Part shown: positions 3,854 to 59,987 of the stretch, one piece after another
Layout of the letters: every line of letters begins with the position of its first letter
Position numbering within the stretch: position 1 is the first letter of the stretch
Position numbers and translations under genes: made by a program
Notes under the pieces: model-generated
What the model was told of the DNA's origin: nothing
Seen by the model: the letters and a program-made list of their open reading frames with translations, nothing else
Databases searched by the model: none
IMG/VR virus record: IMGVR_UViG_3300029431_000104
DNA length: 64,000 nucleotides
From: a virus
Direction: 5' to 3' (one strand)

Positions 3854-3901
3854 ATGCCCTCTTTGGCTTTTTTTATTATGCGTCAAGGAGGTGGAACCCG
3901 T

Positions 3902-4483
3902 ATGGGGCGCAAGAAGAAAAATGCAAGACATAGCGTGCATGGTCGCAAGATTCATGTCAACAAGTACATCAATCAATGCGGAAAAACCAAGAAGTGCCGC
4001 AAGTCAGCAGTATCCTGGCGGCCGGCATCGAAAGAAACACCGTTTAATGATATGCCGACCTACCAGTGGCCGACTGTGAGAACCCCAAAACAGTATGAAG
4101 TCTGGTTCGCAGAGCTAGGCGATCACTCTGGCACTTCGGTGCAGAGCGGTACACGTCCAGTTCTGGTCATCAGCAATGACGTGGCGAATCGTAATTCCCC
4201 GGTCATTACAGTGATTCCGCTGAGTTCCAAGTTGAAGAAGCTGGAACTTCCGGTACACATCGTACTTACAGAAAAAGAGTGTGAGATGCTCAGGGATGAG
4301 CATTTGGAGGATTCCATCCTGCTGGTGGAGCAGATCACAACCATCGATAAGATGGTTCTGTTTAATCGGCTCTGCTATGTGGTCTCCGTTCAGAAGAAGT
4401 ACGAGATCGAAGCGGCTGTCACAAAGCAGTTTGCGATGCGGGCTTCAACACATGGTGCGAATTCTACGAGAAAGGAGGTCTGA
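3902..4483 (+). CDS. PemK/MazF-family endoribonuclease-like protein with N-terminal basic Cys/His extension
   Basis: Core YEVWFAELGDHSGTSVQSGTRPVLVISNDVANRNSPVITVIPLSSK matches the PemK/Kid/MazF signature (GEIW..LDPT.G.EQ.G.RPVLIV....VVPVTS). Strong RBS AAGGAGGTG sits before the ATG at 3902. An alternative start is the ATG at 4052 (core only). The N-terminal ~50 aa is K/R/H/C-rich (HSVHGRKIHVNKYINQCGKTKKC). Confidence 0.65.
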   Translation: MGRKKKNARHSVHGRKIHVNKYINQCGKTKKCRKSAVSWRPASKETPFNDMPTYQWPTVRTPKQYEVWFAELGDHSGTSVQSGTRPVLVISNDVANRNSPVITVIPLSSKLKKLELPVHIVLTEKECEMLRDEHLEDSILLVEQITTIDKMVLFNRLCYVVSVQKKYEIEAAVTKQFAMRASTHGANSTRKEV

Positions 4484-4488
4484 CCGCT

Positions 4489-6900
4489 ATGGTGGATATC
4501 AAAAACATCCCGGCGGAGCTGAAGACCTCCTGCCGGTTTTGTGTCTGGAAATTTGAAAAGCGAAACGGTCAGAAGACCAAGATGCCGTATAACCCGGCGA
4601 ACGGTGACAGAGCAAAGATCAATGACCTCCGAACCTTTGCGGATTTCAAGACCACGCTTGTTACCTACGCGATGGGCGGCTATGATGGCATCGGCATTGC
4701 GGTTGGCAGTGGTATCGGAGCTTTCGACATCGACCACTGCATCCGGGAGGATGGTACGCTGAACGATACTGCGGACACTGTACTTTCGATCTTCCCTACA
4801 GCGTATGTAGAGAAGTCACCGTCCGGCAAAGGACTACGTGGATTCTTCCATGTGCCTGAAGACTACGTCTATGACAAGACGGTTTACTACATCAACAACC
4901 GCAGCAAAGGGCTGGAAGTGTATATGCCCGGTGCGACTAACCGCTTCGTTACCGTGACGGGAGATGTTTACCGCACAGGTGAGATCCCAAACGATGAAAC
5001 GGCAATGACCACTCTGCTGGACTCGCTGATGAAGCGAAATAAGCAGGTGCAGCAGACCCATTTCCAGCACCATTCATATCTGGATGACGAGGCTGTTATT
5101 GCACATGCCAATGAAGCCAGCAACAGTGAGAAGTTCAAAAGGCTGTTTGCCGGTGAGTGGGAAGACCTCTACGGCAGTCAGTCGGATGCAGATATGGCGT
5201 TCCTGTCTATTCTGGCATTCTGGTGCGGCTGTGATGAGGAGCAGATGGACCGCATCTTCCGCACATCTGGTCTGATGCGCCCGAAGTGGGATCGCAAACA
5301 GGCTGGTTCAACCTACGGTGCCATCTCTATCCGCAACACAGTCAATACCTGCGTTTCCGTTTACATTCCTGGCAACGCGCAGGACATTGTGGATGAGGAG
5401 TTTGCAAATCTTGACTCTGATGATAAAGAGGCGGAGCGGCCACCGGACATCAGCAAGCTCACGCTGTCGCTGGAAGAAATGGCTCCGCACACGAATCCGC
5501 GCTACGGCAGGGATGAGATCGGTTTGGGCAACATGTTCGCCGATTTTTTCAAGCCTATCGCACGGTACAACAGTGAACGCGGCATCTGGTTTGTCTATGA
5601 TGGAGTTGTCTGGCAGCCGGATATGGAGAACCTTAAGGTGGCAGAGCTTGCGAAATATCTGGCAGATAAGCTGTATCTGTTTGCATTGAAGATTACAGAA
5701 GAGGATGTCAGAAAGCGGTTCATCGACCGCGTCCGGAAACTCCAGCAACGCAAGCACCGTGACACGATGCTGAAAGACGCGAAGTCCGTATTCCCACTGT
5801 CCATGAAGCAGTACGATCAGGATATCTATCTGTTCAACTGCAAAAATGGAACACTGGATCTGCGGACGATGGAATTCCGGGAACACCGCCCGGAGGATTT
5901 TCTCACAAAAGTGTCCCCTGTGATATATGCCCCGGATGCCGACTGCCCTCGCTGGCGGACGTTCATCACGGAGATCATGCAGGGGGATAAGGCCAGAGCA
6001 GACTATCTTCAGAAGGCTATCGGATACTCGTTGACTGGTGACACCCGCATGGAGTGCTTGTTTATTCTGTACGGTCCGACATCCAGAAACGGTAAGGGTA
6101 CCACAATGGAGAGTATTCTGCGTATTATGGGCGAGTACGGTAAAAATGCAGATCCGACCATGCTGCAGGCGAAGTTTAACAGCCAGAGCGGAGGACCGTC
6201 TGAGGAAATCGCCCGGCTTGCCGGCTCTCGTTTTGTAAACATCTCCGAGCCGGAGAAAAAGATCACTCTGGATGCAGCTCTTACCAAACGACTGACCGGT
6301 AACGATACGATCACAGCCCGGTATCTGCATGAGAACAGTTTTGAGTTCCGACCGAACTTCAAAATTTTCATCAACACGAACCATCGTCCGAATATCACAG
6401 ACCTTACGCTGTTTGAGTCTGGCCGAATCAAAATCATTCCGTTTGACCGGCATTTTGAAGAAAATGAACAGGATAAGGATCTAAAGTCCACTTTTGCTAA
6501 ACCGGAAAATATGTCCGGCATTCTGAACTGGATGCTCGAAGGCTATAAGCTGTTCCGCAGTCAGGGACTTGCCATGCCGGATTCTGTCGTTCAGGCAACA
6601 ACGGACTATCAGATATTCTCAGATAAGATGGGTCAGTTTTTTGATGAATGCATTGAAGAAAAGGAAGGGTGTGAGCTTCGGCGCGGTGCAGTTTACACAC
6701 GCTACAAAGAGTGGTGTGGAGAGAATGGCTACCGGGCAGAGGCAGCCAAGAATCTAAACCAGGAGATTGAAAAGCGGTACAAGACTGCAAGAAAGCGTCC
6801 GAATGACGGTGCCTCCAGCAGTACGACTCCGATGGTCCTGGATGTGGCGTTCACGGCAAGTGAAGAGTCAAAAGAGGACTTTGCACCATTGACATCATGA
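4489..6900 (+). CDS. DNA primase/helicase (N-terminal prim-pol domain, C-terminal D5/P4-type NTPase)
   Basis: 803 aa; N-terminal bifunctional primase-polymerase-like region; P-loop LFILYGPTSRNGKGT; D5_N/PriCT-like middle region; RBS AAAGGAGGT. Confidence 0.85.
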   Translation: MVDIKNIPAELKTSCRFCVWKFEKRNGQKTKMPYNPANGDRAKINDLRTFADFKTTLVTYAMGGYDGIGIAVGSGIGAFDIDHCIREDGTLNDTADTVLSIFPTAYVEKSPSGKGLRGFFHVPEDYVYDKTVYYINNRSKGLEVYMPGATNRFVTVTGDVYRTGEIPNDETAMTTLLDSLMKRNKQVQQTHFQHHSYLDDEAVIAHANEASNSEKFKRLFAGEWEDLYGSQSDADMAFLSILAFWCGCDEEQMDRIFRTSGLMRPKWDRKQAGSTYGAISIRNTVNTCVSVYIPGNAQDIVDEEFANLDSDDKEAERPPDISKLTLSLEEMAPHTNPRYGRDEIGLGNMFADFFKPIARYNSERGIWFVYDGVVWQPDMENLKVAELAKYLADKLYLFALKITEEDVRKRFIDRVRKLQQRKHRDTMLKDAKSVFPLSMKQYDQDIYLFNCKNGTLDLRTMEFREHRPEDFLTKVSPVIYAPDADCPRWRTFITEIMQGDKARADYLQKAIGYSLTGDTRMECLFILYGPTSRNGKGTTMESILRIMGEYGKNADPTMLQAKFNSQSGGPSEEIARLAGSRFVNISEPEKKITLDAALTKRLTGNDTITARYLHENSFEFRPNFKIFINTNHRPNITDLTLFESGRIKIIPFDRHFEENEQDKDLKSTFAKPENMSGILNWMLEGYKLFRSQGLAMPDSVVQATTDYQIFSDKMGQFFDECIEEKEGCELRRGAVYTRYKEWCGENGYRAEAAKNLNQEIEKRYKTARKRPNDGASSSTTPMVLDVAFTASEESKEDFAPLTS

Positions 6901-10256: not shown

Positions 10257-11525
10257 ATGAAAGCGACTGCTGAACTGAAGATGCTGCCGGTGTCCGTACT
10301 CAAGCCGGCCGCATACAATCCCCGGAAAAAGCTGAAGCCGGGGGATAAAGAGTACGAGAAGATCAAGAACTCCATCACGGAGTTCGGGTTCGCAGATCCT
10401 TTGGTGGTCAATGCCGACATGACGATCATCGGCGGCCACCAGAGACTGACTGTTGCAATGGAACTGGGCTATACCGAAGTGCCTTGTGCGGTGGTGGACA
10501 TCGACAAGACCAGGGAAAAAGCCCTGAACATTGCGCTCAACAAGATCACGGGTGCATGGGATGATTCCCTGCTGGCTGATCTTTTGAAGGACATCGAAGA
10601 TTCCAACTTCGACCTTGGCAAGACCGGCTTTGAGCCGCCGGAGATTGAGACCCTGTTCAACAAGGTCCACAGCAAGGAGGTCAAGGAAGATGACTTTGAT
10701 GTGGAATCCGAGCTGAAACAGCCATGCTTCTCCAAAGAGGGCGACCTCTGGCATCTGGGTAAGCACATCGTTCTGTGCGGGGATTCCACCAAAGCGGAAT
10801 GCTATGACACCCTGATGGACGGAACCAAGGCAAATCTGGTCCTTTCCGATCCCCCTTATAACGTGGATGTGGAAGAGACTGCCGGTAAGATCATGAATGA
10901 CAACATGGGCGATTCGGAATTCTACCAGTTCCTTCTGGCAGCGTTCCAGCAGATGCACGGCCATCTTGCAGACGACGGTTCCATCTACATCTTCCATGCA
11001 GATACGGAAGGGCTGAACTTTAGAAAGGCATTCAAGGATGCCGGGTTCTACCTGTCCGGGTGCTGTATCTGGAAGAAGAATGCGCTGGTGCTGGGCCGTA
11101 GTCCTTACCAGTGGCAGCACGAGCCGTGTCTTTACGGCTGGAAGCAGAAGGGAAAGCACCAGTGGTATTCCGACCGGAAGCAGACGACCATCTGGGAGTA
11201 CGACCGGCCGAAGTCCAACAAGGACCATCCGACCATGAAGCCCATCGGCCTGATGAGCTATCCGATCCGCAACTCTACTATGACCAACGGCATCGTCCTC
11301 GATCCGTTCCTGGGCAGCGGCTCGACCCTGATCGCCTGTGAGGAGACCGACCGTGTGTGCCGGGGCATCGAGTTGGACCCGAAGTTCGTGGATGTGATCG
11401 TGAAGCGGTACATCGAACACAGCGATGGTCACTACGATGATGTGTATGTCATCCGTGACGGCCAGAAGCTGAAGTTCGAGGAAGTGGCGACCTTCGAGCC
11501 GGAAAGCGAGGATGCCGATGCCTGA
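10257..11525 (+). CDS. ParB-like nuclease domain / DNA methyltransferase (N6-adenine or N4-cytosine type) fusion
   Basis: N-terminal ParB-N motif (LKPAAYNPRK...GGHQRL); methylase motif IV LSDPPYNVDVEE; motif I DPFLGSGSTLIA; RBS GGAGGG. Confidence 0.85.
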   Translation: MKATAELKMLPVSVLKPAAYNPRKKLKPGDKEYEKIKNSITEFGFADPLVVNADMTIIGGHQRLTVAMELGYTEVPCAVVDIDKTREKALNIALNKITGAWDDSLLADLLKDIEDSNFDLGKTGFEPPEIETLFNKVHSKEVKEDDFDVESELKQPCFSKEGDLWHLGKHIVLCGDSTKAECYDTLMDGTKANLVLSDPPYNVDVEETAGKIMNDNMGDSEFYQFLLAAFQQMHGHLADDGSIYIFHADTEGLNFRKAFKDAGFYLSGCCIWKKNALVLGRSPYQWQHEPCLYGWKQKGKHQWYSDRKQTTIWEYDRPKSNKDHPTMKPIGLMSYPIRNSTMTNGIVLDPFLGSGSTLIACEETDRVCRGIELDPKFVDVIVKRYIEHSDGHYDDVYVIRDGQKLKFEEVATFEPESEDADA

Positions 11526-12291
11526 TGTAAAATGCGTCCTCATCCATGACAACTTCCAGAATTTCAAGTCCTATAACATCCCCAAGGCGCAGCTGGTGAT
11601 CGCAGACATTCCGTACAACATCGGTACAGATTTCTATGCCAGCCGGCCGGACTGGTATGTGGATGGCGACAACAAAAACGGGGAGAGTAGCAAGGCGCGG
11701 AAGGCGGCATTCAATACCGATTTCACCTTCAACATTGCAGAGTATTTCCACTTCTGCAACCGCCTGCTGAAGAAAGAACCCGGCACAGGAGAGAAGGATG
11801 CGCCGTGCATGATCGTGTTCTGTGCGTTTCAACAGATCCCGAAGGTGATCACCGAAGCAGAGAAATACGGTTTCAAGAATTATATCCCGCTGGTGTTTTG
11901 CAAGAACTACAGTCCGCAGGTTTTAAAGGCCAACATGAAGATCGTGGGTGCAACGGAGTATGCTCTGGTTCTGTACCGGGGAAAGCTCCCGAAGTTCCGT
12001 AATCTCGGTGAGGACGGAAAGCCCCATATGATCTTCAACTGGTTTGACTGGAAGCGGGATGGCAGGGAATATCCGAAAATCCATCCTTCCCAGAAACCGA
12101 TCTCCGTGCTGAAACGACTGATCGAGACCTTTACAGATGAGGGCGATGTGGTCATTGACCCCTGCGCCGGCAGCGGCTCCACGCTGAGAGCAGCAAGAGA
12201 ACTGGGGCGCAACAGCTACGGATTTGAAGTATCCAGAGACTTTTACCAGAAAGCAAATGAGCAGATGCTCGGAGAGGAGGTCGCCGGATGA
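11512..12291 (+). CDS. DNA methyltransferase (N6/N4 family, second copy)
   Basis: 259 aa; motif IV-like IADIPYN; motif I VIDPCAGSGSTLRAA; overlaps the upstream gene by 14 nt. Confidence 0.8.
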   Translation: MPMPDVKCVLIHDNFQNFKSYNIPKAQLVIADIPYNIGTDFYASRPDWYVDGDNKNGESSKARKAAFNTDFTFNIAEYFHFCNRLLKKEPGTGEKDAPCMIVFCAFQQIPKVITEAEKYGFKNYIPLVFCKNYSPQVLKANMKIVGATEYALVLYRGKLPKFRNLGEDGKPHMIFNWFDWKRDGREYPKIHPSQKPISVLKRLIETFTDEGDVVIDPCAGSGSTLRAARELGRNSYGFEVSRDFYQKANEQMLGEEVAG

Positions 12292-14546
12292 GCACAGAAC
12301 AGAATAAGACTTTGACCCTCGGCAGCCTCTTTGATGGCTCCGGGGGTTTTCCATTGGGCGGTCTGTTGACCGGGCAGATCACTCCGGTGTGGAGCAGCGA
12401 GATCGAGCCGTTTGCCATCCGGGTCACGACCAAACGTCTGCCGCAGGTGAAGCACTACGGAGATGTGTCTGCCATCAGCGGAGCAGACCTGCCTCCAGTG
12501 GACATCATCACTTTTGGGAGTCCCTGTCAGGATATGTCCATCGCCGGTAAGCGGGACGGTCTGGATGGTTCACGGTCCAGTCTGTTTTACGAAGCAATCC
12601 GAATCGTGAAGGAAATGAGGTGTAAGACCAATGGAGAAAAACCAAGATTTATCGTGTGGGAGAATGTGCCAGGGGCCTTCTCCTCAAACAAAGGGCAGGA
12701 CTTCAAAGCAGTCCTCGAAGCCGTCATCGGTGTTAAAGAACCGGCCGCCTCGGTGCCTGCGCCTGAGAAGAAAGGATGGCCCGATGCCGACTACTATGTG
12801 GGAGACGGATGGAGCGTCGCGTATCGAGTTCTTGATGCACAGTGGTGGGGCGTTCCCCAAAGAAGAAAACGTATCTACCTTGTCGCAGATTTTGCAGACC
12901 AGAGTGCCCCAAAGGTACTATTTGAGTCCGAAGGCGTGTCTCGGTATTCTGCGGAGGGCTTCCGTGCGTGGCAAAGAGCTGCCGCCGGTGCTGAAAGCGG
13001 CACTGGAGAGGCAGGCTGTAACGGAGCAGGAGGACGGATCTGTCTGAACGACCAGGGCGGCAGGCAGATGGATGTTTCCAAAGATGTGACCGGAACCCTA
13101 CGGGCAGAGGAGCATGGGCATCAGCCGTGTGTTCTGGAAGCCGCCGGTTTTTGTACCGAGCATTCCGCAGATGCCAGAAGCATCGGATACGAGGAAGAGC
13201 GGTCACAGACCCTCCGAGCTGGTGTTGTGCCTGCCGCCATCGCACTGGAGAATCATCCTGCTGACAGCCGGGTGAAGATTTCCGAGGACGGTAAGGTGCA
13301 GACACTGACAAGCCGGTGTGGTACGGGTGGCGGCAATGTCCCGATGGTCATGGATGCTGTTGAAAATTCAGTGGAAAGCTCGGTGAAAGATGTTGAAAAC
13401 TCCCCGGCAGTCACACTGAAAATTCGCTCCGGTTGCGAGGGCGGCGGGAAGGGAGCCATCTGGCAGGAAGAAAAGTCGGCCACCCTCGGCTGCAACAACG
13501 ACCAGACACTGTTCGTTCCGAAATGCTATGGCGTCTGTTCCAAAGTCAGCCATTCCATGATGTCCGATAATCCGCACAGCGGTTTTTATGAGGCCGAAAC
13601 TTCCCGGACACTGGACCGCAGCGGCGGTGACCCGACCTGCAATCAGGGCGGTATCTGTGTGGTAGAGCCGGTCGCCTTTACCCAGAACCAGAGGGATGAA
13701 GTCCGGGATCTTGGAGAAAAGTCAGCGGCACTGGCAGCAGATCCAGGGATGAAGCAGCAGACCTTTGTGGCACAGCCGGAAGATGTGACAGTCTTCCATG
13801 TGAACCAGCGCAATGAGCTGATCGATCTGCATGGTAAGTCCGGCGCTTTGATGGCGACCCGGAGTGACCAGATGCAGACCTTCGTCCTGCAGGGCAACAT
13901 GATCGGCCGCAAGGATGAGAACGGTCCGCAGGGGGATGGTGTCAATGAGGATGTCTGCTTTACACTGGATGCCACTGACCGCCATGCAGTCTGCGCACCG
14001 GAGGATGTGTATGCCATGACCACCGGCTCCTATATGCAGGTGGCAAAAGAAGTCGCACCGACCCTGATGGCACGGGATTACAAAGACCCGACCACCATCG
14101 CACCGGTACCGCATTTGAACGAGGGTGTCATGGGAACGGTGGCAACCGGGGCACATCCCAGCGGCTTCAACGGGCAGGATGCTTTCAATGACCGTCTGGT
14201 CATCGACAATCCGGAAGCACAGCCCGCACCTGTGACCTATACAGTTCGCCGTTTGACACCGACCGAGTGTGCCAGACTGCAGGGCTTCCCAGACTGGTGG
14301 TGCAGAGACCTCGGAACGGAAGACCCGACCGAAGAAGAGCTGGCATTCTGGGCAGATGTGTTTGAAACGCACCGTAAGATCGTGACCCATGCCAAGAAGC
14401 CGAAAACGGAGAAGCAGATCCGGAAATGGCTGGCTGACCCGTATACGGATTCGGCCGAGTACCGTATCTGGGGCAACGGCATTTGCTTAGCCAACGCATT
14501 CTTTGTTCTGGCCGGCATCGCATGGTGTGCAGGTCTGGAAGAATAA
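12288..14546 (+). CDS. DNA (cytosine-5)-methyltransferase, large (752 aa) with extended variable region
   Basis: Motif I LFDGSGG; motif IV GSPCQDMSIAG; motif VI ENVPG; C-terminal motif IX/X RRLTPTECARLQGFPD; a ~450-aa variable/target-recognition region suggests a multispecific enzyme. Confidence 0.85.
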   Translation: MSTEQNKTLTLGSLFDGSGGFPLGGLLTGQITPVWSSEIEPFAIRVTTKRLPQVKHYGDVSAISGADLPPVDIITFGSPCQDMSIAGKRDGLDGSRSSLFYEAIRIVKEMRCKTNGEKPRFIVWENVPGAFSSNKGQDFKAVLEAVIGVKEPAASVPAPEKKGWPDADYYVGDGWSVAYRVLDAQWWGVPQRRKRIYLVADFADQSAPKVLFESEGVSRYSAEGFRAWQRAAAGAESGTGEAGCNGAGGRICLNDQGGRQMDVSKDVTGTLRAEEHGHQPCVLEAAGFCTEHSADARSIGYEEERSQTLRAGVVPAAIALENHPADSRVKISEDGKVQTLTSRCGTGGGNVPMVMDAVENSVESSVKDVENSPAVTLKIRSGCEGGGKGAIWQEEKSATLGCNNDQTLFVPKCYGVCSKVSHSMMSDNPHSGFYEAETSRTLDRSGGDPTCNQGGICVVEPVAFTQNQRDEVRDLGEKSAALAADPGMKQQTFVAQPEDVTVFHVNQRNELIDLHGKSGALMATRSDQMQTFVLQGNMIGRKDENGPQGDGVNEDVCFTLDATDRHAVCAPEDVYAMTTGSYMQVAKEVAPTLMARDYKDPTTIAPVPHLNEGVMGTVATGAHPSGFNGQDAFNDRLVIDNPEAQPAPVTYTVRRLTPTECARLQGFPDWWCRDLGTEDPTEEELAFWADVFETHRKIVTHAKKPKTEKQIRKWLADPYTDSAEYRIWGNGICLANAFFVLAGIAWCAGLEE

Positions 14547-14769: not shown

Positions 14770-15954
14770 ATGTTGAAATTTAAACTGAACGTAGCCGAGA
14801 GAAAGACCCTCGCAAAACGCATGGAGGAGCTGACCGGCATCCACCCTTACTATACCAAAGCACCTCTGTATTCTTACGACATCGGGAGCTACACCATCGA
14901 CCGGAATGGCAACCTTCTGGTCGAGCCGGAGAATGCAGATGCCGAGCTGCTGACGACCCTGCTGAATGAGGGACTGATCCGCGGCGGCGAGAGTATTGAG
15001 AGTACGGATGACCAGCCGGAGGACACAGAGCTGACAGCGGATATGGATGAGGAGCCTGTGACCGAAGCGGAAACTGAGCAGATGCCCGAAGCAGAGCTGG
15101 AGGTTCTGGACGAGCAGGAATCCGAAGATGCAGATACCGCAGAAGATGAACCTGCGGAAGCAGGAGCCGAGGATGCATTGGAGCCGGACAATACGGCTGA
15201 GGATGATACCATAGAGGATGAGCCGGATGCAGAATCGCAGGAGACAGAAGATCAGCCGGAAGAGGTGCCGCTGGACTTGGAACTTGCATTCCCGGTCAGC
15301 CAGCACAACGGTGTGACTCTCCGCAACCTGGTCAACCTTCTTTACAGCCGCGGCAAGCTCATCGGCAAGGCGACTGGAGGACACTTCCATGTGGAAGAGG
15401 GGCTGGTCGAGAAGCTGAAGGACGATAGCTGCACCTTTGCCATCATGAACTTCATCAATGCGGTCAGCGACTATGAGACTGAACATGGTGCTGCACTGGA
15501 AGGCCTGAAAATCACCACCGAGAAGGTCACCTTTACCGGCTTCCCGACTGCACCGGACCACGAACATCTGACGGCTTTTGCACAGCTGGCGGTGCTGATG
15601 AACCAGCAGGCTATCAGCCAGAAGCGCATCCAGGCAAAGGATGTCAACGATGAGAATGAGAAATACTCACTCCGCACATGGCTCCTGCGGCTGGGGATGA
15701 ACGGTCCGGATTTCAAAGAGACACGCAAGATCCTCATGGAGAACCTTTCCGGCCATGCGGCTTTCCGCACGGATGAGGAAGCACAGAAGTTCCTTGCAAG
15801 GGAAAAGGCAAAACGGGATGCCCTGAAAGCCGCGAAACTGGCGGCACAGAACGGCGATCCTGCCACAGGGGAAACGGTCGCACCGGATACGACCCGGCCG
15901 ACACAGCCCGACTGTGGGGCAGACATGGCGCAGATGCTGGAGGCGGGAGCGTAA
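14770..15954 (+). CDS. divergent amidoligase-like paralog (probable pseudoenzyme) with ~100-aa poly-acidic insert
   Basis: 394 aa. Its N-terminus (NVAERKTLAKRMEELTG) aligns to the amidoligase NITREKAARKVAEYFGT. GGHFHVEEG aligns to GCGVHIHIG, KVTFTGF to GTIEFRLF, and the C-terminal NEKYSLRTWLLRLGMNGPDFKETRKILMENLSGHAAFR to NEKYAMRCWMLRLGFIGDEFATAREILLRNMEGNASWR. The catalytic E-x-E and E/R positions are replaced. Residues 85-190 are almost entirely D/E. Confidence 0.6.
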   Translation: MLKFKLNVAERKTLAKRMEELTGIHPYYTKAPLYSYDIGSYTIDRNGNLLVEPENADAELLTTLLNEGLIRGGESIESTDDQPEDTELTADMDEEPVTEAETEQMPEAELEVLDEQESEDADTAEDEPAEAGAEDALEPDNTAEDDTIEDEPDAESQETEDQPEEVPLDLELAFPVSQHNGVTLRNLVNLLYSRGKLIGKATGGHFHVEEGLVEKLKDDSCTFAIMNFINAVSDYETEHGAALEGLKITTEKVTFTGFPTAPDHEHLTAFAQLAVLMNQQAISQKRIQAKDVNDENEKYSLRTWLLRLGMNGPDFKETRKILMENLSGHAAFRTDEEAQKFLAREKAKRDALKAAKLAAQNGDPATGETVAPDTTRPTQPDCGADMAQMLEAGA

Positions 15955-16110
15955 GCTCCCAATCCCCCAATGGGGGCCGGAAAATATGCGAGACCCTCTT
16001 CCATTGTACCGATATTAGCTCTGAAAATGTACATTATCAAGCGGATAAACTGCAGAAATGTACACGATCATTCTGCCTTATATTTGTCGAATATATGTTC
16101 TTTTATATCC

Positions 16111-16139
16111 TTGCTATTATCCGCACCTGACGGTAATAT
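16111..16139 (+). promoter_or_regulatory. repeated early promoter copy (TTGCTA-17-TAATAT) driving the amidoligase operon
   Basis: TTGCTA 16111-16116, 17-nt spacer ending TGACGG, TAATAT 16134-16139; leader CACATACCGAAAGGGAAAAC; same element as the 20248-22984 copies. Confidence 0.6.
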
Positions 16140-16186
16140 GCACATACCGAAAGGGAAAACAAGGAAAAAACAAAGGAGAACATACC

Positions 16187-17125
16187 ATGAACGATAAAAC
16201 AAGAGAGCAGATTGAAGCCATGAAGAACCAGACCATCGGAGTTGAGATTGAGATGAACAACATCACCAGAGAAAAAGCGGCAAGAAAGGTCGCCGAGTAC
16301 TTCGGAACCAGAGCATGGAACGCCGCCGGCGAGTACGGATATTACAGCTGGGCTTGCAAGGATGGACAGGGCAGGGTTTGGAAATTCCAGAGGGATGTGA
16401 GCATCTACGGACCGGACGCAGAAAAATGCGAACTGGTCACCCCGATCCTCACCTACGACGACATCGAAACCTTGCAGGAAATCATCCGGCTGCTCCGAAA
16501 GGCAGGCGCAAAGAGCGGCCCAAGCCGCGGATGCGGAGTCCACATTCACATTGGCAAAGGCGACCACACCGCAAAGACCATCCGCAACCTTGTGAACATC
16601 ATGGCGGCGCACGAACAGCAGATCGGCAGAGCCATCCGGATCGATGCAGGGCGCACCGGACAATATTGCCAGGTGGTCAACCATCGCTTCCTCGACCGGC
16701 TGAACCGCGAGAAGCCGACCACCATGCACAGGCTGGAAGACATCTGGTACGAAGGCAACGGTTCCAGCTGGGAAAACCGGAATGCCCACTACAATTCAAG
16801 CCGGTACCATATGCTGAACCTCCATGCCACCTTTACAAAAGGGACCATTGAATTCCGCCTTTTCCAATTCGCAGACCCAGCGGACGGAAAGCGCAACGGA
16901 CTGCACGCCGGTGAGATGAAAGCCTATATCCAGCTTTGCCTCGCAATGAGCCAGCTTGCCAAGATGGTCAGGACGGCAAGCCCAAAGCCCCAGCAGACCG
17001 ACAATGAAAAGTATGCGATGCGGTGCTGGATGCTGAGGCTGGGATTCATCGGGGATGAATTTGCAACGGCAAGGGAAATCCTTCTGCGGAACATGGAGGG
17101 CAACGCATCCTGGCGGAACAAATAA
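16187..17125 (+). CDS. amidoligase (Amidoligase_2 / glutamine-synthetase-like fold)
   Basis: 312 aa starting at an internal ATG after the AAAGGAGAA RBS. GS-like motifs are present: GVEIEMN (E-x-E), GCGVHIHIG (H-x-H) and GTIEFRLF (E, R). Iyer et al. 2009 described this family in phages and conjugative elements. Confidence 0.8.
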   Translation: MNDKTREQIEAMKNQTIGVEIEMNNITREKAARKVAEYFGTRAWNAAGEYGYYSWACKDGQGRVWKFQRDVSIYGPDAEKCELVTPILTYDDIETLQEIIRLLRKAGAKSGPSRGCGVHIHIGKGDHTAKTIRNLVNIMAAHEQQIGRAIRIDAGRTGQYCQVVNHRFLDRLNREKPTTMHRLEDIWYEGNGSSWENRNAHYNSSRYHMLNLHATFTKGTIEFRLFQFADPADGKRNGLHAGEMKAYIQLCLAMSQLAKMVRTASPKPQQTDNEKYAMRCWMLRLGFIGDEFATAREILLRNMEGNASWRNK

Positions 17126-17192
17126 GCCGGGATGCACGGGCACCTTTTGGGCGGGCAACCGCCCTTGAGGTGGTAGAAGGAGGTGCAGGTTT

Positions 17193-17429
17193 ATGAAAAG
17201 CACGTTAAAAAATGAAAACACACCGGGTGGCAGAACCTTTAAGGTGACCATCACCGAGACCTACCAGAGAACGGTGACCATTTATGAATCCGAGATGAAA
17301 GAGCCGACCGTGGAGGAAGCACAGCGTGTGGCAGAGGACTGGTGGCAGGACAGCCAGATCGAGCTTGGGACAGAGGATTTCCAGGGCGTGGAATTCACTG
17401 GCAGGGAGGACGGTGAGGCAGATGTTTGA
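17193..17429 (+). CDS. small acidic protein (78 aa) co-transcribed with amidoligase/GGCT
   Basis: Strong RBS GAAGGAGGTG; C-terminus ...FTGREDGEADV; overlaps the GGCT start by 8 nt (translational coupling). Confidence 0.5.
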   Translation: MKSTLKNENTPGGRTFKVTITETYQRTVTIYESEMKEPTVEEAQRVAEDWWQDSQIELGTEDFQGVEFTGREDGEADV

Positions 17430-17943
17430 GTTGATCAGCCGAGTCCCATCCAGATATTATCTTGCCTACGGAAGCAACCTCGACATGGAGCGGATGGGAA
17501 AGAGATGCCCCTACGCTGTGGTGGTCGGCACGACCGAGATCAAGGGCTACCGGCTCCTGTTCAAAAAGAGCAAGACCGGCTGCTATGCCACCATCGAGCA
17601 GGATGCCAATGAAAGCGTACCAGCGGTGGTCTGGAAACTCTCGGAATACGATGAGCTCCTGCTGGACCGGTACGAGGGATGCCCAAGATACTATTACAAG
17701 AAGCAGTTCCAGCTTCAGGTCTGGAACCTGAACGGGAACCGCATGAAAAAGGCAAAGCCCTGCATCGCTTATGTGATGCACGAGGACCGGCGGCTTGGCT
17801 GCCCGGATGCCGAGTATTTTGAACTGCTGCAGGGCGGATACAGCGACTGGGAGTTTCCGCTGGACACACTGAAGCGTGGACTGGCAGCCAGTATCGGAAG
17901 GGCGGAAGCCATCCGGTATCTGAAGAAGCGGCAGATGATGTAA
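17422..17943 (+). CDS. gamma-glutamyl cyclotransferase-like protein (GGCT/AIG2 family), copy 1
   Basis: YYLAYGSNLDMERM...YEGCPRYY: AIG2/GGCT signature YxxYGSN and a downstream Glu; 173 aa from the ATG at 17422. Confidence 0.8.
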   Translation: MFELISRVPSRYYLAYGSNLDMERMGKRCPYAVVVGTTEIKGYRLLFKKSKTGCYATIEQDANESVPAVVWKLSEYDELLLDRYEGCPRYYYKKQFQLQVWNLNGNRMKKAKPCIAYVMHEDRRLGCPDAEYFELLQGGYSDWEFPLDTLKRGLAASIGRAEAIRYLKKRQMM

Positions 17944-18073
17944 GAGTACACGATCAAAAGCAAAAAACATTGTGCAGTATATGATGCTCATCGGCCTTGA
18001 TAAATCAGGGCAGAAGAGTGATATATACCATACCGCCAGACAAGAGCGGAGAAAACCGAAGGGAGAGATTCAA

Positions 18074-18553
18074 ATGAAGAACAAGAAATATTACATCGCC
18101 TACGGCAGCAACCTGTCGGTGGAGCAGATGGCAGACCGATGCCCGGATGCAAAAATTGCAGGGCAGGCGGTGCTGGCCGGCTGGGAGCTTTTGTTCCGCG
18201 GCTGCGCCACCATCGCACCGAACCCGAAGAAGAACACGCCGGTTCTGGTGTGGGAGATCTCGGAAAGGGACGAAGGAAACCTCGACCTCTATGAGGGCTA
18301 CCCGAACTACTACCGCAAGGAAGATCTGAACATCGAACTGCTCCGGGAAAGGGCAGAGCCGGAGATGGTGACCGCAATGGTCTACATCATGGAGAACGAC
18401 TTCGGACGCCGCTCACCGAGCCGGTATTACTACAAAGTCCTGCATGACGGCTACAAGGCATTCCACTTCCCGATGCACATCCTCGAAGGTGCGCTGAAGG
18501 AATGCATGGATAAGGATGCCGCCCAGCGGATGATCGAGGAGGTGCAGGCATGA
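18074..18553 (+). CDS. gamma-glutamyl cyclotransferase-like protein (GGCT/AIG2 family), copy 2
   Basis: YYIAYGSNLSVEQMADRCP...LYEGYPNYY; paralog of 17422-17943; ATG at 18074 after GAAGGGAGAG. Confidence 0.8.
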   Translation: MKNKKYYIAYGSNLSVEQMADRCPDAKIAGQAVLAGWELLFRGCATIAPNPKKNTPVLVWEISERDEGNLDLYEGYPNYYRKEDLNIELLRERAEPEMVTAMVYIMENDFGRRSPSRYYYKVLHDGYKAFHFPMHILEGALKECMDKDAAQRMIEEVQA

Positions 18554-19017
18554 ATTTCGCAGATAAGAAAACGGTCGAGAAGCTGAGAAAAGAGTTCCCG
18601 GTCGGATGTCGGATCGTCCTCGATGAGATGGATGACAGGCAGGCACCGACCATCGGAACGCAGGGAACCTGCAACGGGGTCGATGATGCCGGAAACATTT
18701 TAGTGAGCTGGGATACCGGAAGCCATCTAAACGTTGCCTACGGCGCGGACAGTTGCCACCGTGTGGCAACGGATGCCGAGGTCAAGGTGTCGCTCGACCG
18801 GCTTGGTAAAACGCGACAGACCGGCCCACGTTGCCCCAGGTGCGGAGCAAAGCCCGACTGCTACGACCATCAGCAGCAGGCACTCAGCCGAAGGGCGGAC
18901 ATCCAGATCTGCAACCGCTGCGGAACGGAGGAAGCGTTAGAGGACATTGCATGGGGCGGACAGCAGAAGATGCATCTTGCAGACTGGGCAATCGTGAAAG
19001 GAGGCTGGGTCGAATGA
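18550..19017 (+). CDS. DUF4314-like protein with C-terminal zinc ribbon
   Basis: LRKEFPVGCRIVLDEMDD.QAPTIGTQGTCNGVDDAGNILVSWDTGSHLNVAYG matches the DUF4314 signature found in phage/ICE accessory regions; C-terminal CPRCG...CNRCG. Confidence 0.55.
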   Translation: MNFADKKTVEKLRKEFPVGCRIVLDEMDDRQAPTIGTQGTCNGVDDAGNILVSWDTGSHLNVAYGADSCHRVATDAEVKVSLDRLGKTRQTGPRCPRCGAKPDCYDHQQQALSRRADIQICNRCGTEEALEDIAWGGQQKMHLADWAIVKGGWVE

Positions 19018-19385
19018 AGGTTCTTCTGATCAAACCGATGGAGCATCCGCAGGTGGTGGACATTGAAAACTCCCTGAAAGAGTTCTACCGCATCCTCGAC
19101 TGCGACTGTATCACAGCCACCTACCCGTGGGAAGAACGCGCCGCCCTGGTCACCGATGACAACGGTCTGTTCACCGAGAAGTCATTCAGCAGATACATCC
19201 CGGAGCTGGAGCAGCCCATCAAGGGAAACTTCTTCATCTGCGGACTGGGAGAGGAGGATTTCGCAGAACTGCCCCAGGACCTGATCCGGAAATTCAAGGA
19301 ACGCTTCTGGGTGCCGGAGGCATTCGTCAGCATGTTCGGGCAGATGGCAGTCATCCAGATGGATGACGGAACGAAGCCGGAATAA
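19014..19385 (+). CDS. DUF3846-like protein
   Basis: The ATG at 19014 overlaps the previous stop (ATGA). MKVLLIKPMEHPQVVDIENSLKEFYRILDCDCI...FFICGLGEED is typical of DUF3846 proteins of ICE and phage leading regions. Confidence 0.55.
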   Translation: MKVLLIKPMEHPQVVDIENSLKEFYRILDCDCITATYPWEERAALVTDDNGLFTEKSFSRYIPELEQPIKGNFFICGLGEEDFAELPQDLIRKFKERFWVPEAFVSMFGQMAVIQMDDGTKPE

Positions 19386-19846: not shown

Positions 19847-20101
19847 TTAGAAGAAATCCCTCATGCTCATGCCGACCTCGTTCAGTCGTTCCTCCATGCT
19901 GTGGTAGTGCCAATCCTCTTCCTCTTCTTCGTCCTCTTCCTCAAGCTCCTCTGGGAAAGGGTCGTGCCGCCATCCGGCTTTCTGGTATTCTTCTTCCCGA
20001 ATGTCGTTGCGGTCGTAAATGTCCAGCTCGTATTCTTCTTCAAGCTCTGCGATGCGGTTTTCGATTGCGGTTTCAACTTCTGTAATGGTCTTTTTCATGG
20101 T
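19847..20101 (-). CDS. small poly-acidic protein (84 aa), minus strand
   Basis: ATG at 20101 (minus strand) after a GGAGG RBS; sequence EEEYELDIYDRNDIREEEYQKAGW...EELEEEDEEEEEDWHYH; convergent with 19457; hairpins in the 19650-19840 gap. Confidence 0.5.
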   Translation of the reverse strand, partial: TMKKTITEVETAIENRIAELEEEYELDIYDRNDIREEEYQKAGWRHDPFPEELEEEDEEEEEDWHYHSMEERLNEVGMSMRDFF

Positions 20102-20247
20102 TTTTGTCCTCCGTTTTTGGTTTGGTTTTCTTTGCTTTCGTTGTGTGTATAATGCCGCAGAAACACATATATAGCAAGTCAATCAGGGGTCATATATGTA
20201 CCAAACATGAGGGACGAAGATCGTTGATAATATGAGGTTTTATGGCC

Positions 20248-21306: not shown

Positions 21307-21756
21307 ATGACGAAGAACGAAGAACGCATCAATAAACTTTTCAAGGAACTGGTACCGGAGACGGGCAAGGCAGACAGCCTCGCAGGGGAGCTGGTAAGGG
21401 CAATGAGCCGCATCGGATACCGCTTTTACAACGATGGCGACCAGCTGGGCATCGGCTACGGCAAGGAAACCTGCAACCCTGCAGGGCGCTTCCTTGGAGC
21501 CAAGGGCAACGACAAAATCGCAAAGCTGACTGCAGATGCATGGGCAGTCTACAGCGAGGAAGCCTACGAAAAGGTCCTGGGCATCCTTTGCGGAGCGGTT
21601 GCCGACTATGTTGAGCAGAACCCAGACCTTAGAAACCAGCCGACCGAAGATATGTGGGATTTCAAGGATGAGGAAGAAGACCAGGATGACAGCTGGGATG
21701 AAGAGGAAGATGACTGGGGCGAAGAGGAAGATTACGAGGACGAAGAAGACTACTAA
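21307..21756 (+). CDS. hypothetical protein with poly-acidic C-terminal tail (149 aa)
   Basis: RBS ACGGAGGATACGACA then ATG; C-terminus DFKDEEEDQDDSWDEEEDDWGEEEDYEDEEDY. Confidence 0.55.
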   Translation: MTKNEERINKLFKELVPETGKADSLAGELVRAMSRIGYRFYNDGDQLGIGYGKETCNPAGRFLGAKGNDKIAKLTADAWAVYSEEAYEKVLGILCGAVADYVEQNPDLRNQPTEDMWDFKDEEEDQDDSWDEEEDDWGEEEDYEDEEDY

Positions 21757-21924: not shown

Positions 21925-22116
21925 ATGAAGAAGAACATCACCAAGGAAGAGGAAAAAGCCCTGCTGGAGATCGCCAAGCGCCTGATGGCAGCGGTGGACA
22001 GCCGGGGCGACCTCGAAGCCCGCGACAATGACAGCGAGGACTTCATTGAGGTTCCGGTCTGGGGCATCCAGAAAGCAATGGAGGAAGCCTACCTGCTGGG
22101 ACGGATGACCAGATAA
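21925..22116 (+). CDS. small hypothetical protein (63 aa)
   Basis: RBS ACGGAGGAAAGCACC then ATG. Confidence 0.5.
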   Translation: MKKNITKEEEKALLEIAKRLMAAVDSRGDLEARDNDSEDFIEVPVWGIQKAMEEAYLLGRMTR

Positions 22117-22586: not shown

Positions 22587-22871
22587 ATGAAAAAGCATTT
22601 GATCGACTTCCCGGAAAACAACATCAGCATCGAGAGCTTCTACGACCGGCTCAGACCTTGCTACGATAGCATCATGCAGTTTAGTGACCGGGTTCTGGTT
22701 GCCCAGATGAACTGGAATGGCATGCTGGAGGGAGCGGTATACGGCTTTGTGGAAGACCCGGAGGAAGGCTGGTCACCGATTGAATGCCGGCTGGAACTTC
22801 TGAAGATTTCCGATGAGACCTACACGGATGCCGGTCACGCAATCGAGTGGTGCATCAGGAACGCACACTGA
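22587..22871 (+). CDS. small hypothetical protein (94 aa)
   Basis: RBS CACGGAGGAATTCACC then ATG. Confidence 0.5.
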   Translation: MKKHLIDFPENNISIESFYDRLRPCYDSIMQFSDRVLVAQMNWNGMLEGAVYGFVEDPEEGWSPIECRLELLKISDETYTDAGHAIEWCIRNAH

Positions 22872-52529: not shown

Positions 52530-52563
52530 GACCAGTTGCAAGGCTGGAAGAAAGGAGCAGATT

Positions 52564-58154: not shown

Positions 58155-59987
58155 ATGATAAGAAGTGAAGCAGAAGCGGTAGACCGCAAGCAAAGGATAA
58201 GAGACAGATACAAAGGTGTGGATACCTCTGAATTAGAGGTTATCCCGGCAAAAGCAGTGGAGGGGCTTGGAGAAAGCACCTCTATTCGGCGTGTCGCCGC
58301 TTATGTCCGTGTTTCTACTGATAATGATGAGCAGACTTCTTCTTATGAACTTCAGAAAAATTATTATACAGAGTACATAAAGGCACAGCCGGGATGGGAG
58401 TTCGTTGGAATTTACGATGATGAAGGCATCAGTGGAACATCGCTGGAGCATCGTAAGGGAATGCAGCAGTTGATTGAAGATTGCAAAGCAGGAAAGATAG
58501 ACCTGGTCCTTACGAAGTCCATCGCCCGTTTTGCCCGAAACATTGTGGATTGCCTTTCTGTCATTGAAACACTGAAAGATCTTGATCCACCTGTAGGTGT
58601 GAAATTTGAAGCGGATAATATTTATACGCTTGACAGTAACGGTCGTATGATCCTGACGATTTTGGCATCAGTTGCCGAAGAAGAATCTCATTCCAAGTCA
58701 ATCATTATGAACTGGTCCATTGACCGCCGGTTCAGCCGCGGACTGTTCCTGACGCCTGCTCTGCTTGGATATGATCAGGATGAGGACGGCAATCTTGTAG
58801 TGAATCCAGCGGAGGCTCAGACGGTAAAGGTCGTTTACTATCTGTACCTGAATGGATTTTCATTTACTGAGATTGCAGAGCTTTTGACAGAATATGGTCG
58901 GAAGACAAAATTGGGGAACACAGAGTGGAACCCAGGCACTCTTGCAGGTGTCATTGCCAATGAACGCCATTGTGGAGATGTGCTGGCGAGAAAGACTTTC
59001 ACGCCAAATTTTCTAACACATAAATCAAAGAAAAATAATAATGATCGGACGCAATACCGGCAAAGGGATCATCACGAGGCAATCGTGTCCAGAGAAGTCT
59101 ATAATGCAGCAAATCATCTGCGGGCATCCAGAAGTTATGCAAAGAAAAATCGTCCTTTGCCAGTTTTGAGTGTCGTGAATGATGGAATCCTACGAGGATA
59201 TGTTCCTTTCGACAAGGACTGGACTGGCTTTTCAGCGGAGGAATATCGGGAGGCATCTGAAAGTGTGATGCAAGAGAAGCCGGCCGATACCACAGAGGTT
59301 ATGAATCGCCTGGATCTTTCTGGCTATGAAGTAGTACGGGCGCAGTATTTCTCAACGTTGCGGAATCCGGCCATGACGATTTCAAATGGCAAGTTGCGTT
59401 TCAATACTGCCTGCCTGAAAAAATTTGAAGATGTGGAGTATGTGGAACTGCTTCTGAACTCGGTTGATCGCTGTGTTGCAATCCGGCCGTGTGAAAAGAG
59501 CAATCCGAATGCGATTCACTGGGGAAAGCTGAAGGAAGGTCGGTGGTGTGCCAGTACACTTGGATGCCGTGGTTTGGCAAAGACCCTTTTTGACATCATG
59601 GAATGGGAAGAAGGATTGAAATACCGTTTCCGGGGTCAGTTTGTGGAGCAGAGAGATAATAAGCTGATGCTTTTTGAACTGGATGAACCGGAGATGGTAA
59701 AAATTGAGGAGATTGTTCTGCCACCGAAGGAAGAAGAATCGGAAGGCAAGACAGTCAAGCAGACAATCTACATTTTCCCACCAGAATGGGCAGGAACTTT
59801 TGGACAGCCGATTACGAGTATTGCACAAGTCGGTATTTTGCAACAGGAGCATTACTCTGGAAACTGGGATGTACTCCGGCCAGCCACAGAAATAGAAGAA
59901 ATGAATACATTTACCGCAGATGGTTTGAATGCACTGCTCCATGAAGCGGAAAAGATAATGGAAGGATGGACAGATACGGATGAATGA
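58155..59987 (+). CDS. large serine recombinase 3 with C-terminal DUF4368-like domain
   Basis: AAYVRVSTDNDEQTSSYELQ...GKIDLVLTKSIARFARN; recombinase domain; the C-terminal ~200 aa is homologous to the two downstream ORFs. Confidence 0.85.
   Translation: MIRSEAEAVDRKQRIRDRYKGVDTSELEVIPAKAVEGLGESTSIRRVAAYVRVSTDNDEQTSSYELQKNYYTEYIKAQPGWEFVGIYDDEGISGTSLEHRKGMQQLIEDCKAGKIDLVLTKSIARFARNIVDCLSVIETLKDLDPPVGVKFEADNIYTLDSNGRMILTILASVAEEESHSKSIIMNWSIDRRFSRGLFLTPALLGYDQDEDGNLVVNPAEAQTVKVVYYLYLNGFSFTEIAELLTEYGRKTKLGNTEWNPGTLAGVIANERHCGDVLARKTFTPNFLTHKSKKNNNDRTQYRQRDHHEAIVSREVYNAANHLRASRSYAKKNRPLPVLSVVNDGILRGYVPFDKDWTGFSAEEYREASESVMQEKPADTTEVMNRLDLSGYEVVRAQYFSTLRNPAMTISNGKLRFNTACLKKFEDVEYVELLLNSVDRCVAIRPCEKSNPNAIHWGKLKEGRWCASTLGCRGLAKTLFDIMEWEEGLKYRFRGQFVEQRDNKLMLFELDEPEMVKIEEIVLPPKEEESEGKTVKQTIYIFPPEWAGTFGQPITSIAQVGILQQEHYSGNWDVLRPATEIEEMNTFTADGLNALLHEAEKIMEGWTDTDE

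Follow-up and report, generated by a model that had tools for sequence, protein, structure and literature searches.

In the window analyzed here, the 64-kb stretch of IMG/VR virus record IMGVR_UViG_3300029431_000104 taken at its full length of 64,000 nucleotides, the interval from 14770 to 19385 encodes an apparently active amidoligase, two gamma-glutamylcyclotransferase (GGCT)-fold enzymes and, upstream of these, a catalytically dead paralog of the ligase that carries a polyacidic insert. On balance, the interval is read as two separable units, one a pair of enzymes that ligate and release a gamma-glutamyl group and the other a binding protein that acts independently and without catalysis. 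An earlier sequence-only reading had joined five open reading frames (ORFs) between 14770 and 18553 into a single module, with the amidoligase as writer and the GGCTs as eraser. All five ORFs are present, with good ribosome-binding sites and ATG starts, and the tight linkage of ligase and GGCT fits a write/erase or protect/deprotect pair; the inclusion of the dead paralog and of a 78-aa acidic-tailed protein, however, is not supported.

Genomic distribution of the ligase, the GGCTs and the dead paralog

Two sets of related loci were compared. One was anchored on the dead paralog (80 loci from species-representative genomes, retrieved with the dead-paralog profile, 54 of them usable with at least 3 kb downstream) and the other on the ligase (80 loci from IMG/VR, retrieved with the ligase profile, 57 of them usable with at least 2 kb on either side). 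At the 54 dead paralog-anchored loci, the paralog stood alone in 15 cases, was followed by the ligase in 7 and by the ligase and one GGCT in 20, and occurred in the window's own variant, with a DpnD-like protein and two GGCTs, in the remaining 12. Ligase and GGCT form one tightly coupled cassette: a GGCT accompanied 32 of the 39 ligases in this set (82%) and never occurred without a ligase, and it was present at 54 of the 57 ligase-anchored loci (95%). The dead paralog was found at 44 of these 57 loci (77%) and was absent from 13 when each was checked ORF by ORF. The 15 paralog-only loci and the 13 ligase loci free of the paralog thus define two units, ligase plus GGCT and dead paralog plus DUF4314, which are often neighbors and neither of which requires the other.

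Gene order around the dead paralog is nearly constant, namely (MetK), ParB-methylase, (C5 methylase), dead paralog, DUF4314, further genes, TerL and portal; in most of the 80 genome loci, a methylase is encoded 5′ of the dead paralog. At 101 of 120 loci, a DUF4314 gene follows the dead paralog at a distance of no more than 5 kb, and stop and start codons overlap in 56 of 69 directly adjoining pairs; the ligase follows after a gap of 120 to 150 nt.

Promoter architecture also sets the dead paralog apart from the ligase. The 30-mer CTTGMTA-N12-GACGGTAATAT occurs exactly seven times in the 64 kb by exact pattern search, against an expectation of zero, with all copies on the plus strand (16110, 20247, 20565, 21233, 21851, 22500 and 22983) and with the flanks and the 5′ untranslated region conserved in each. 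The copy at 16110 to 16139, a sigma-70-like promoter unit of the form CTTGCTA-N12-GACGGTAATAT, heads the ligase operon 48 nt 5′ of the start codon, in agreement with the earlier claim of a reiterated promoter before the ligase. The six further copies head small-gene units between 20.2 and 23.0 kb, including those of DUF6900 (21925 to 22116) and Nmad4 (22587 to 22871), and an exact search of the window found no copy 5′ of 14770, leaving the dead paralog outside the promoter unit of the ligase. The invariant GACGG that precedes the −10 element suggests, as a feature of the sequence, that a dedicated regulator or sigma factor may be involved. The exact motif was found in only 26 of 163 related loci and is therefore silent on regulation of the cassette in general.

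Pairing of amidoligase and GGCT in phages was reportedly predicted by Iyer et al. in 2009. Of the three components of such systems (amidoligase, class II glutamine amidotransferase [GATase] and GGCT), the linkage of ligase to GGCT is found here and the GATase partner is not. The absence of this partner, already remarked upon in the sequence-only reading, holds for the 39 window proteins scanned, none of which has a Pfam match to a GATase (the structural-gene half of the window lay outside the scan), and for 559 unassigned neighboring ORFs from 158 loci, among which no recurrent cluster of at least 200 aa, and so no partner of GATase size, was detected. Families that do recur in these 158 loci are DUF6809 with a zinc ribbon, DUF7678, DUF7698 and TerS.

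The ligase, the GGCT-fold enzymes and the other genes of their operon

The ligase gene (16187 to 17125, plus strand) encodes a 312-aa glutamine synthetase (GS)-like carboxylate-amine ligase. Profile search placed it in Amidoligase_2, the same family as had been claimed, with a score of 186.8 bits against PF12224 (cutoff 22; E = 8.2e-55; profile positions 1 to 244 of 245) and a match to phrog_2443 at 1e-104. All motifs are intact: GVEIEMN (E-x-E), CELVTP, GVHIHIG (H-x-H), SRYH (R-Y) and TIEFRLF (E-x-R). The motif positions are invariant in 42 orthologues from related neighboring loci, and 25 diverse orthologues all share residues E20, E22, E82, H119, H121, R206, Y207, E222 and R224; judged by these residues, the ligase looks active. 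The Pfam model stops at residue 254, leaving outside it a C-terminal helical module (residues ~270 to 311) that is shared with the dead paralog. A single-sequence AlphaFold prediction of the ligase yielded an unusable model, with a mean confidence (pLDDT) of 34.5.

Two observations on related ligase genes were made in passing. A 311-aa member of the 90%-identity cluster of the ligase (RHP01745.1) is labeled "alpha-L-fucosidase" in NCBI nr, an evident misannotation. At one locus (L002, 12124 to 15345, contig NODE_2_length_503848), the amidoligase gene is interrupted by an insertion with three consecutive tyrosine-recombinase genes in a prophage that is otherwise identical; that lysogen can therefore do without the cassette, and the slot is a target of other mobile elements.

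The products of 17422 to 17943 (173 aa) and 18074 to 18553 (159 aa), both on the plus strand, are two GGCT/AIG2-like paralogs, as had been recognized from their YGSNL motifs. They score 38.3 bits (2.2e-9) and 44.5 bits (2.8e-11), respectively, against PF06094 (GGACT; cutoff 22.8) and match phrog_2520 at 4e-37 and 5e-41; the second also matches AIG2_2 (1.3e-6), and both match human GGCT structures (1e-4). The two share 35% identity (E = 3e-32). Their Y[LI]AYGSNL motifs (YLAYGSNL and YIAYGSNL) and LD[RL]YEG motifs (LDRYEG and LDLYEG) align to YFAYGSNL and LDEQEG, the latter with the catalytic E98, of the human enzyme, and both YGSNL and the catalytic Glu are retained in all 50 of the 50 phage GGCT ORFs examined.

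Between the ligase and the first GGCT, whose start its stop codon overlaps, lies the 78-aa protein (17193 to 17429, plus strand). It belongs to the DpnD/PcfM family (PF14207; 29.7 bits, cutoff 25; E = 6.5e-7; profile positions 1 to 46 of 46), which is also the NCBI name of its family ("DpnD/PcfM family protein"). The short acidic tail reported earlier is present, but it is not conserved: the core is constant and the tail varies, ending in GEADV in the window and in GGE in 4 of 12 relatives (the ORFs beside the ligases of L009, L011, L013 and L014). The DpnD-like protein is confined to the two-GGCT sub-lineage (12 of 54 dead paralog-anchored loci), and its proposed role as ligase substrate or as part of the same machine finds no support in this distribution.

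Downstream, a string of overlapping genes runs from the second GGCT through a DUF4314 domain protein with a C-terminal zinc ribbon (18550 to 19017, plus strand; PF14192, 5.9e-27) to a DUF3846 protein (19014 to 19385, plus strand; PF12957, 1.1e-22), the start of the latter having been taken from the ORF translation, in agreement with the gene call in a related locus (L001). NCBIfam gave no match for the module proteins and PADLOC-DB 2.0 none for the seven proteins between 14770 and 19385, and literature searches on DUF4314 and on phage cyclotransferases in defense contexts found nothing.

The dead paralog and its acidic insert

The gene at 14770 to 15954 (plus strand) encodes a 394-aa protein consisting of a degenerate GS-like N-lobe (residues 1 to 70), the polyacidic insert (~71 to 166), a C-lobe, the helical module, a basic helix (335 to 361) and a variable end. 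Its descent from the ligase family, as proposed in the sequence-only reading, was borne out by profile comparison: it matches phrog_2443 ("amidoligase") at 3.9e-38 over residues 2 to 342, and hhalign pairs its residues 167 to 334 with positions 115 to 311 of the alignment of active neighbors at 99.9% (E = 1.3e-32). The claimed whole-length alignment stands for the C-lobe and for the C-terminal 38 aa, which are 50% identical in the two proteins; the N-lobe (3 to 75) is collinear with ligase residues 20 to 114 and individually weak (E = 0.056). The protein has no Pfam match at E ≤ 0.1, and none of 94 family members matches PF12224 at E ≤ 0.01. Glutamine synthetases recur among its Foldseek matches in the PDB, none of them significant. 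From these alignments, 14770 to 15954 is judged to be a homologue of the ligase by ancestry and fold and not a member of PF12224.

Every catalytic motif has gone, in line with the earlier suggestion of a pseudoenzyme that had lost E-x-E and E/R. E-x-E has become KFK, the CELVTP strand is absent, H-x-H has become LELAF, R-Y is lost and E-x-R has become TFT, and no catalytic position is among the conserved columns of the 94-sequence family alignment, which, like hhalign, pairs DHTAKTIRNLVN with QHNGVTLRNLVN. One pairing given previously, of GGHFHVEEG with GCGVHIHIG (returned likewise by a second BLAST high-scoring segment pair), was a misalignment and was rejected in favor of the 29- and 94-sequence alignments and hhalign, in which GVHIHIG-KGDHTAKTIRNLVN is paired with LELAFPVSQHNGVTLRNLVN. 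Since GVHIHIG is thus paired with LELAFPV, the H-x-H motif is also lost and no catalytic motif is left in the dead paralog.

What the family has conserved lies elsewhere: an N-terminal DRKxLVxRLxELTG helix, HTGxSLRNLxN, the module NEKYxFRxWLxRxGMxGxEYKxxRKxLxxNLSGHxAFRT and, on the helix after the module, a basic stripe at residues 340 to 353. The module (15646 to 15771, plus strand, with the joint consensus NEKYxxRxWxxRxGxxGxE(F/Y)KxxRxxLxxNxxGxxA(F/W)R) is the best-conserved part of both the ligase and the dead-paralog families. Alignments to Bacillus, Arthrobacter and Porphyromonas phage amidoligases end before it, and by that comparison the module is judged clade-specific. Because alignments to distant amidoligases stop short of the module and the Pfam model leaves it out, the dead paralog was most likely duplicated within this phage lineage. 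It shares both the RNL helix and the module with neighboring active ligases, and most likely keeps a non-catalytic surface that the enzyme would also use.

The family is large and matched by no Pfam model. An exhaustive search of 1.84 billion representatives returned 2,313 clusters (50% identity) at E < 1e-3, some of the weaker of which are probably true ligases, and 224 at E < 1e-30; the 90%-identity cluster of the window's dead paralog alone has 798 members. In Streptococcus phage Javan630, where the gene order is kept, the protein is labeled "virulence-related protein".

Some relatives carry additional domains. Two clusters, P0136 (551 aa) and P0203 (346 aa), have an N-terminal extension with a weak resolvase-type helix-turn-helix (HTH) before a full or half dead paralog, and the extension in P0136 also has a weak, sub-threshold match to DUF2116 ("probable treble clef"); these extensions hint at a DNA-associated role. 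In another 50%-identity cluster (P0230, 797 aa), the C-terminal half of the dead paralog is fused to a large serine recombinase sharing 49% identity with the window integrase (50169 to 52529), and at one locus (L168, 3970 to 4923) a serine-recombinase-like gene lies directly 3′ of a dead paralog with a long insert; either the dead-paralog gene is a target of the integrases of related phages or the two are functionally linked. The N-terminal extension of the 786-aa serine integrase of the window was considered as a relative of the dead paralog, as prompted by P0230, and proved unrelated on comparison.

The insert (14980 to 15267, plus strand; residues ~71 to 166), noted earlier as an Asp/Glu stretch of about 100 aa, carries a net charge of −43 and is predicted to be intrinsically disordered, with pLDDT values of 43 to 53 and below 50 throughout residues 79 to 147. 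Across 94 family representatives, its length ranges from 3 to 185 aa (median, 64.5), its median net charge is −21 and its composition is rich in E (25%), A (12.5%), D and T (10% each) and P (8%), with hardly any K or R (2.8% together); 7 of the 94 have almost no insert, and in many it is weakly acidic. In 120 copies of at least 88% identity, all indels fall within residues 100 to 159, and substitutions per site reach 0.17 in the insert compared with 0.006 to 0.03 in the folded parts, which are thus under purifying selection, unlike the insert. That charge and disorder are kept and sequence is not argues against a specific modification site and favors a role as a spacer or as a bulk electrostatic element. 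Inserts are longest in the DpnD and two-GGCT variant, a closely related group. A dependence of the long insert on DpnD and the second GGCT was rejected, however, because neither ligase nor GGCT lies downstream of distant members (464, 450 and 441 aa) whose insert is also long.

Proposed mechanism and alternative explanations

In GS-superfamily ligases, such as GS, GCL and PafA, the gamma-carboxyl group of glutamate is activated by ATP and passed to an amine, and enzymes of the GGCT fold act on gamma-glutamyl amides with a free alpha-amino group, releasing the amine and 5-oxoproline. By analogy, the phage ligase would couple a carboxylate to an acceptor amine at the expense of ATP, free glutamate with its gamma-carboxyl group being the most likely donor, and the GGCT would free the amine again by cyclizing the gamma-glutamyl group to 5-oxoproline, so that the pair could run a write/erase or protect/deprotect cycle. 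The first unit (16110 to 19385) is an operon with its own promoter, comprising the ligase, the DpnD/PcfM-like protein, two GGCTs, DUF4314 and DUF3846, within which overlapping genes are translationally coupled; ligase and GGCT are its conserved core, a trimmed form of the phiEco32/LUZ24-type amidoligase/GGCT(/GATase/ATP-grasp) cassette. The second unit (14770 to 15954) is a pseudoenzyme derived from the same phage ligase and most likely acts by binding, not by catalysis. It retains the C-terminal module and the basic helix and, usually together with DUF4314, may recognize the partner of the enzyme through the shared module, with the acidic linker as a putative electrostatic element. Both units appear to share one accessory slot, flanked by the DNA-methylase and the packaging genes, in a temperate siphophage whose hosts are gut Clostridia. 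Most likely, the ligase does not require the dead paralog as a subunit, nor is the dead paralog its obligatory substrate.

Several points weigh against this two-unit interpretation. The carboxylate, the amine and the gamma-glutamyl product are proposed solely from the chemistry of GS, GCL and PafA and from the presence of a GGCT, and a writer and an eraser expressed together would run a futile cycle unless they were separated by substrate or by time. Both sets of loci consist of the best 80 matches of pattern-based scans and are phylogenetically clustered, and hence a biased sample; even so, the dead paralog accompanies 77% of ligase-anchored loci and shares a module with the enzyme, which leaves room for a facultative complex or an adaptor role. 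PDB sequence searches with the ligase and dead-paralog families returned nothing meaningful, i.e., no solved relative is detectable by sequence, and literature searches found no biochemical characterization of any Amidoligase_2 protein or phage GGCT.

A different possibility, considered rather unlikely, is that ligase, GGCTs and 78-aa protein make up one writer–eraser system together with the dead paralog, which would be a scaffold, a regulatory subunit or a substrate, or that the DpnD-like protein serves as a Pup-like tag or substrate. The adjoining genes, the frequency with which ligase loci include the dead paralog (44 of 57), the clade-specific module common to both proteins and the coincidence of the longest inserts with the DpnD and two-GGCT variant all agree with such a system. 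Each component is nevertheless found without the others, long inserts are also found at loci with neither ligase nor GGCT downstream, the coincidence of insert length with the variant is confounded by relatedness, and the dead paralog lies outside the ligase promoter unit and is translationally coupled to DUF4314. Its insert, moreover, has no conserved site and combines frequent indels with a high substitution rate (~0.17 per site). As for a tag, GGE is the C terminus of mature Pup, which is ligated by the GS-like PafA, and the GGE ends of 4 of 12 DpnD-like tails recall it. Pupylation involves a small disordered tag with a conserved C-terminal GGQ or GGE, whereas the DpnD-like proteins consist of a folded domain and a variable tail, which ends in GEADV in the window, and are confined to one sub-lineage; because the tail is not conserved, its Pup-like reading was rejected. 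In addition, GGCT requires a free alpha-amino group, so that Pup-like, peptide-linked Glu could not be removed by it.

It is about as doubtful that the dead paralog is a stand-alone anti-restriction or anti-defense protein, a nucleic acid mimic that titrates host DNA-binding defense proteins, with the ligase cassette as an unrelated neighbor. Its position is suggestive, directly after three DNA methylases and MetK and in an island of small acidic proteins with Nmad4, and so is the charge of its insert, about twice the family median in the window, with composition constrained and sequence not. The same holds for its independence of the enzymes in distribution, for the two clusters in which an HTH/treble-clef DNA-binding region is fused to its N terminus and for a weak, sub-threshold Lar-like match in one related locus. 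Yet the representatives almost without an insert (7 of 94), and the many in which it is weakly acidic, place the conserved function in the folded core. No homology to known anti-defense proteins was found. Ocr and ArdA share strong negative charge and a location beside anti-restriction functions such as methylases with the dead paralog; they are, however, rigid folded charge arrays without homology to it, in contrast to the charge carried in a disordered, length-variable linker of a pseudoenzyme.

A related and similarly tentative proposal regards the dead paralog as a new and very widespread class of phage pseudoenzyme, a gutted GS fold whose module, kept for target recognition, and fast-evolving, disordered polyanionic insert would enable phages of gut Firmicutes to bind and neutralize a host factor. 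That factor might be a DNA-binding defense protein or a target that is gamma-glutamylated by the sister enzyme; ligase and GGCT would then be the catalytic, reversible version, and enzyme and pseudoenzyme would form a pair directed at one host target.

Butirosin biosynthesis offers another precedent, in which BtrJ, an ATP-grasp enzyme with a carrier-protein-bound intermediate as its substrate, installs a gamma-glutamyl group in an ATP-dependent reaction and the GGCT-fold BtrG takes it off again as 5-oxoproline. By analogy, the gamma-glutamyl group in the phage might be a transient protecting or activating group on the way to a small molecule or a hypermodified DNA base, a possibility ranked somewhat lower than the preceding ones. 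The ligate-then-release logic is the same, the coupling of ligase and GGCT is tight, the surroundings are rich in DNA modification (three methylases, MetK and Nmad4) and amidoligase/amidotransferase domains recur beside thymidine-hypermodification genes in phage contigs (PMC8989533). On the other hand, none of the 39 window proteins scanned is a 5-hydroxymethyldeoxyuridine (5-hmdU) kinase, dUMP hydroxymethylase, aGPT-Pplase or TET/JBP protein, and neither a carrier protein nor further tailoring or pathway enzymes recur in the 158 loci.

Least probable of the readings weighed here is that the cassette alters the cell envelope, e.g., a peptidoglycan stem peptide or a teichoic acid amine, to block superinfection or prepare lysis: the enzyme families are those of a "peptidoglycan modification cassette" (PMC5498523), superinfection exclusion has been suggested (PMC10580990, PMC11318856) and peptidoglycan offers gamma-glutamyl and epsilon-amino chemistry, but the hypothesis is itself a conjecture for the phiEco32/LUZ24/RIO-1 cassettes, their GATase, ATP-grasp and second amidoligase partners are missing here, no signal peptide or membrane segment was seen in the proteins when their translations were read by eye, and the host is Gram positive, with a different wall chemistry.

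Genomic context and hosts

Nearly the whole length of the 64 kb belongs to one temperate siphophage. Profile scans identified TerS, TerL, portal, an HK97-type capsid, an amidase/glucosaminidase endolysin and large serine recombinases, which confirms the phage origin of the DNA, as well as an SNF2 helicase, a D5/NrS-1-type primase-polymerase, a phage MetK (7407 to 8474; Pfam) and three DNA methylases. The methylases (10257 to 14546, plus strand; Pfam) comprise a ParB-N6 methyltransferase, an N6/N4 methyltransferase and a 752-aa C5 methyltransferase; they lie directly 5′ of the dead paralog and, with the phage MetK, are consecutive in the window. The Pfam match of the C5 enzyme (12288 to 14546, plus strand) is broken into three stretches around a long central region, a likeness to multispecific phage C5 methylases.

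Other features of the accessory region and its relatives were recorded. One phage without a dead paralog (L093) has in this slot, directly behind the ParB-methylase, an ORF of 252 aa (5349 to 6107) that contains an SGGKDS motif and by eye resembles a PP-loop/PAPS-reductase-type protein; if PP-loop-like, it would fit a slot that gathers DNA-modification or anti-restriction genes. Small acidic proteins are a theme of the island in the window, with extreme acidic tracts in the products of 21307 to 21756 (plus strand; DDSWDEEEDDWGEEEDYEDEEDY) and 19847 to 20182 (minus strand; EELEEEDEEEEEDW), the latter among the few plausible minus-strand genes in a phage region where almost all genes are on the plus strand. 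Within the replication module, 3854 to 4483 (plus strand) encodes a 209-aa protein with a PemK/MazF toxin domain (2.7e-19), for which no antitoxin was identified. Toward the far end, two large serine recombinases adjoin (50169 to 54864) and a third lies at 58155 to 59987, with a PD-(D/E)XK transposase-like gene and an AAA_25 ATPase between, and GC content falls to ~0.45 past ~54 kb; the prophage probably ends near 55 kb and is followed by another mobile element or host DNA.

Near-identical copies were found in long contigs or genomes of Blautia faecis, Faecalibacterium intestinale and Clostridium fessum and in human-gut metagenomes. Several matches among deposited phages, e.g., NatCom_991, are assigned to Ca. 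Heliusvirales, a lineage reported to be widespread in the human gut, in which methylases and MetK are the most frequent accessory genes (PMC11283538). Because its replication genes are unlike the Heliusvirales markers, the window phage is regarded as a relative and not as a member of that lineage.

Relation to known systems and significance

Cassettes of amidoligase, GGCT and glutamine amidotransferase, with or without ATP-grasp, have been described in phiEco32-, LUZ24-, PaP3-, RIO-1-, 7-11- and CW02-type podoviruses (PMC5498523, PMC10580990). As in those cassettes, an Amidoligase_2 ligase is coupled in the window to a GGCT-fold enzyme in a phage accessory region, and in both the function is predicted only. 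In contrast to them, the window version has two families, with no GATase, ATP-grasp or second active amidoligase, resides in temperate Firmicutes siphophages, has a ligase with the clade-specific C-terminal module and has the dead paralog as a frequent but dispensable neighbor. "Two amidoligases" (phrog_2443) and a GGCT have also been listed in Clostridium clostridioforme prophages (PMC11318856); this is the same arrangement, with the dead paralog taken for an amidoligase.

Comparison with better-known enzymes marks further differences. Dop, the partner of PafA, is active and has catalytic residues, whereas the phage dead paralog has none; there is no sequence-level relationship to PafA/Dop and no conserved Pup-like tag in the phage cassette, and the phage eraser is a GGCT, unable to cleave peptide-linked glutamate. 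The phage GGCTs resemble human GGCT (C7orf24) and GGACT/AIG2-like proteins in passing the PF06094 threshold, in the structure match and in keeping YGSNL and the catalytic Glu, but they are very divergent (the phrog_2520 clade) and are duplicated into 35%-identical copies. The ligase/GGCT pairing is thus already known, and the window cassette is a minimal variant of an uncharacterized kind. What appear to be undescribed are a pseudoenzyme family that is fully dead and has a distribution of its own, the hypervariable polyacidic linker of this family and its pairing with DUF4314.

Annotation pipelines routinely call the pair "amidoligase" and "gamma-glutamyl cyclotransferase", and PHROGs merges the dead paralog with the enzyme, so that pipelines report "two amidoligases". 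A minimal two-family cassette in prophages of culturable human-gut Clostridia, which has relatives in Blautia faecis and Faecalibacterium intestinale, offers a tractable entry point to this chemistry. The dead paralog, for its part, is almost always present between the methylase and terminase genes of a phage lineage prevalent in human guts. Once worked out, the role of this dead GS-fold protein with its hypervariable acidic linker would annotate thousands of gut-phage genes, and its function may reveal a new anti-defense or regulatory strategy.

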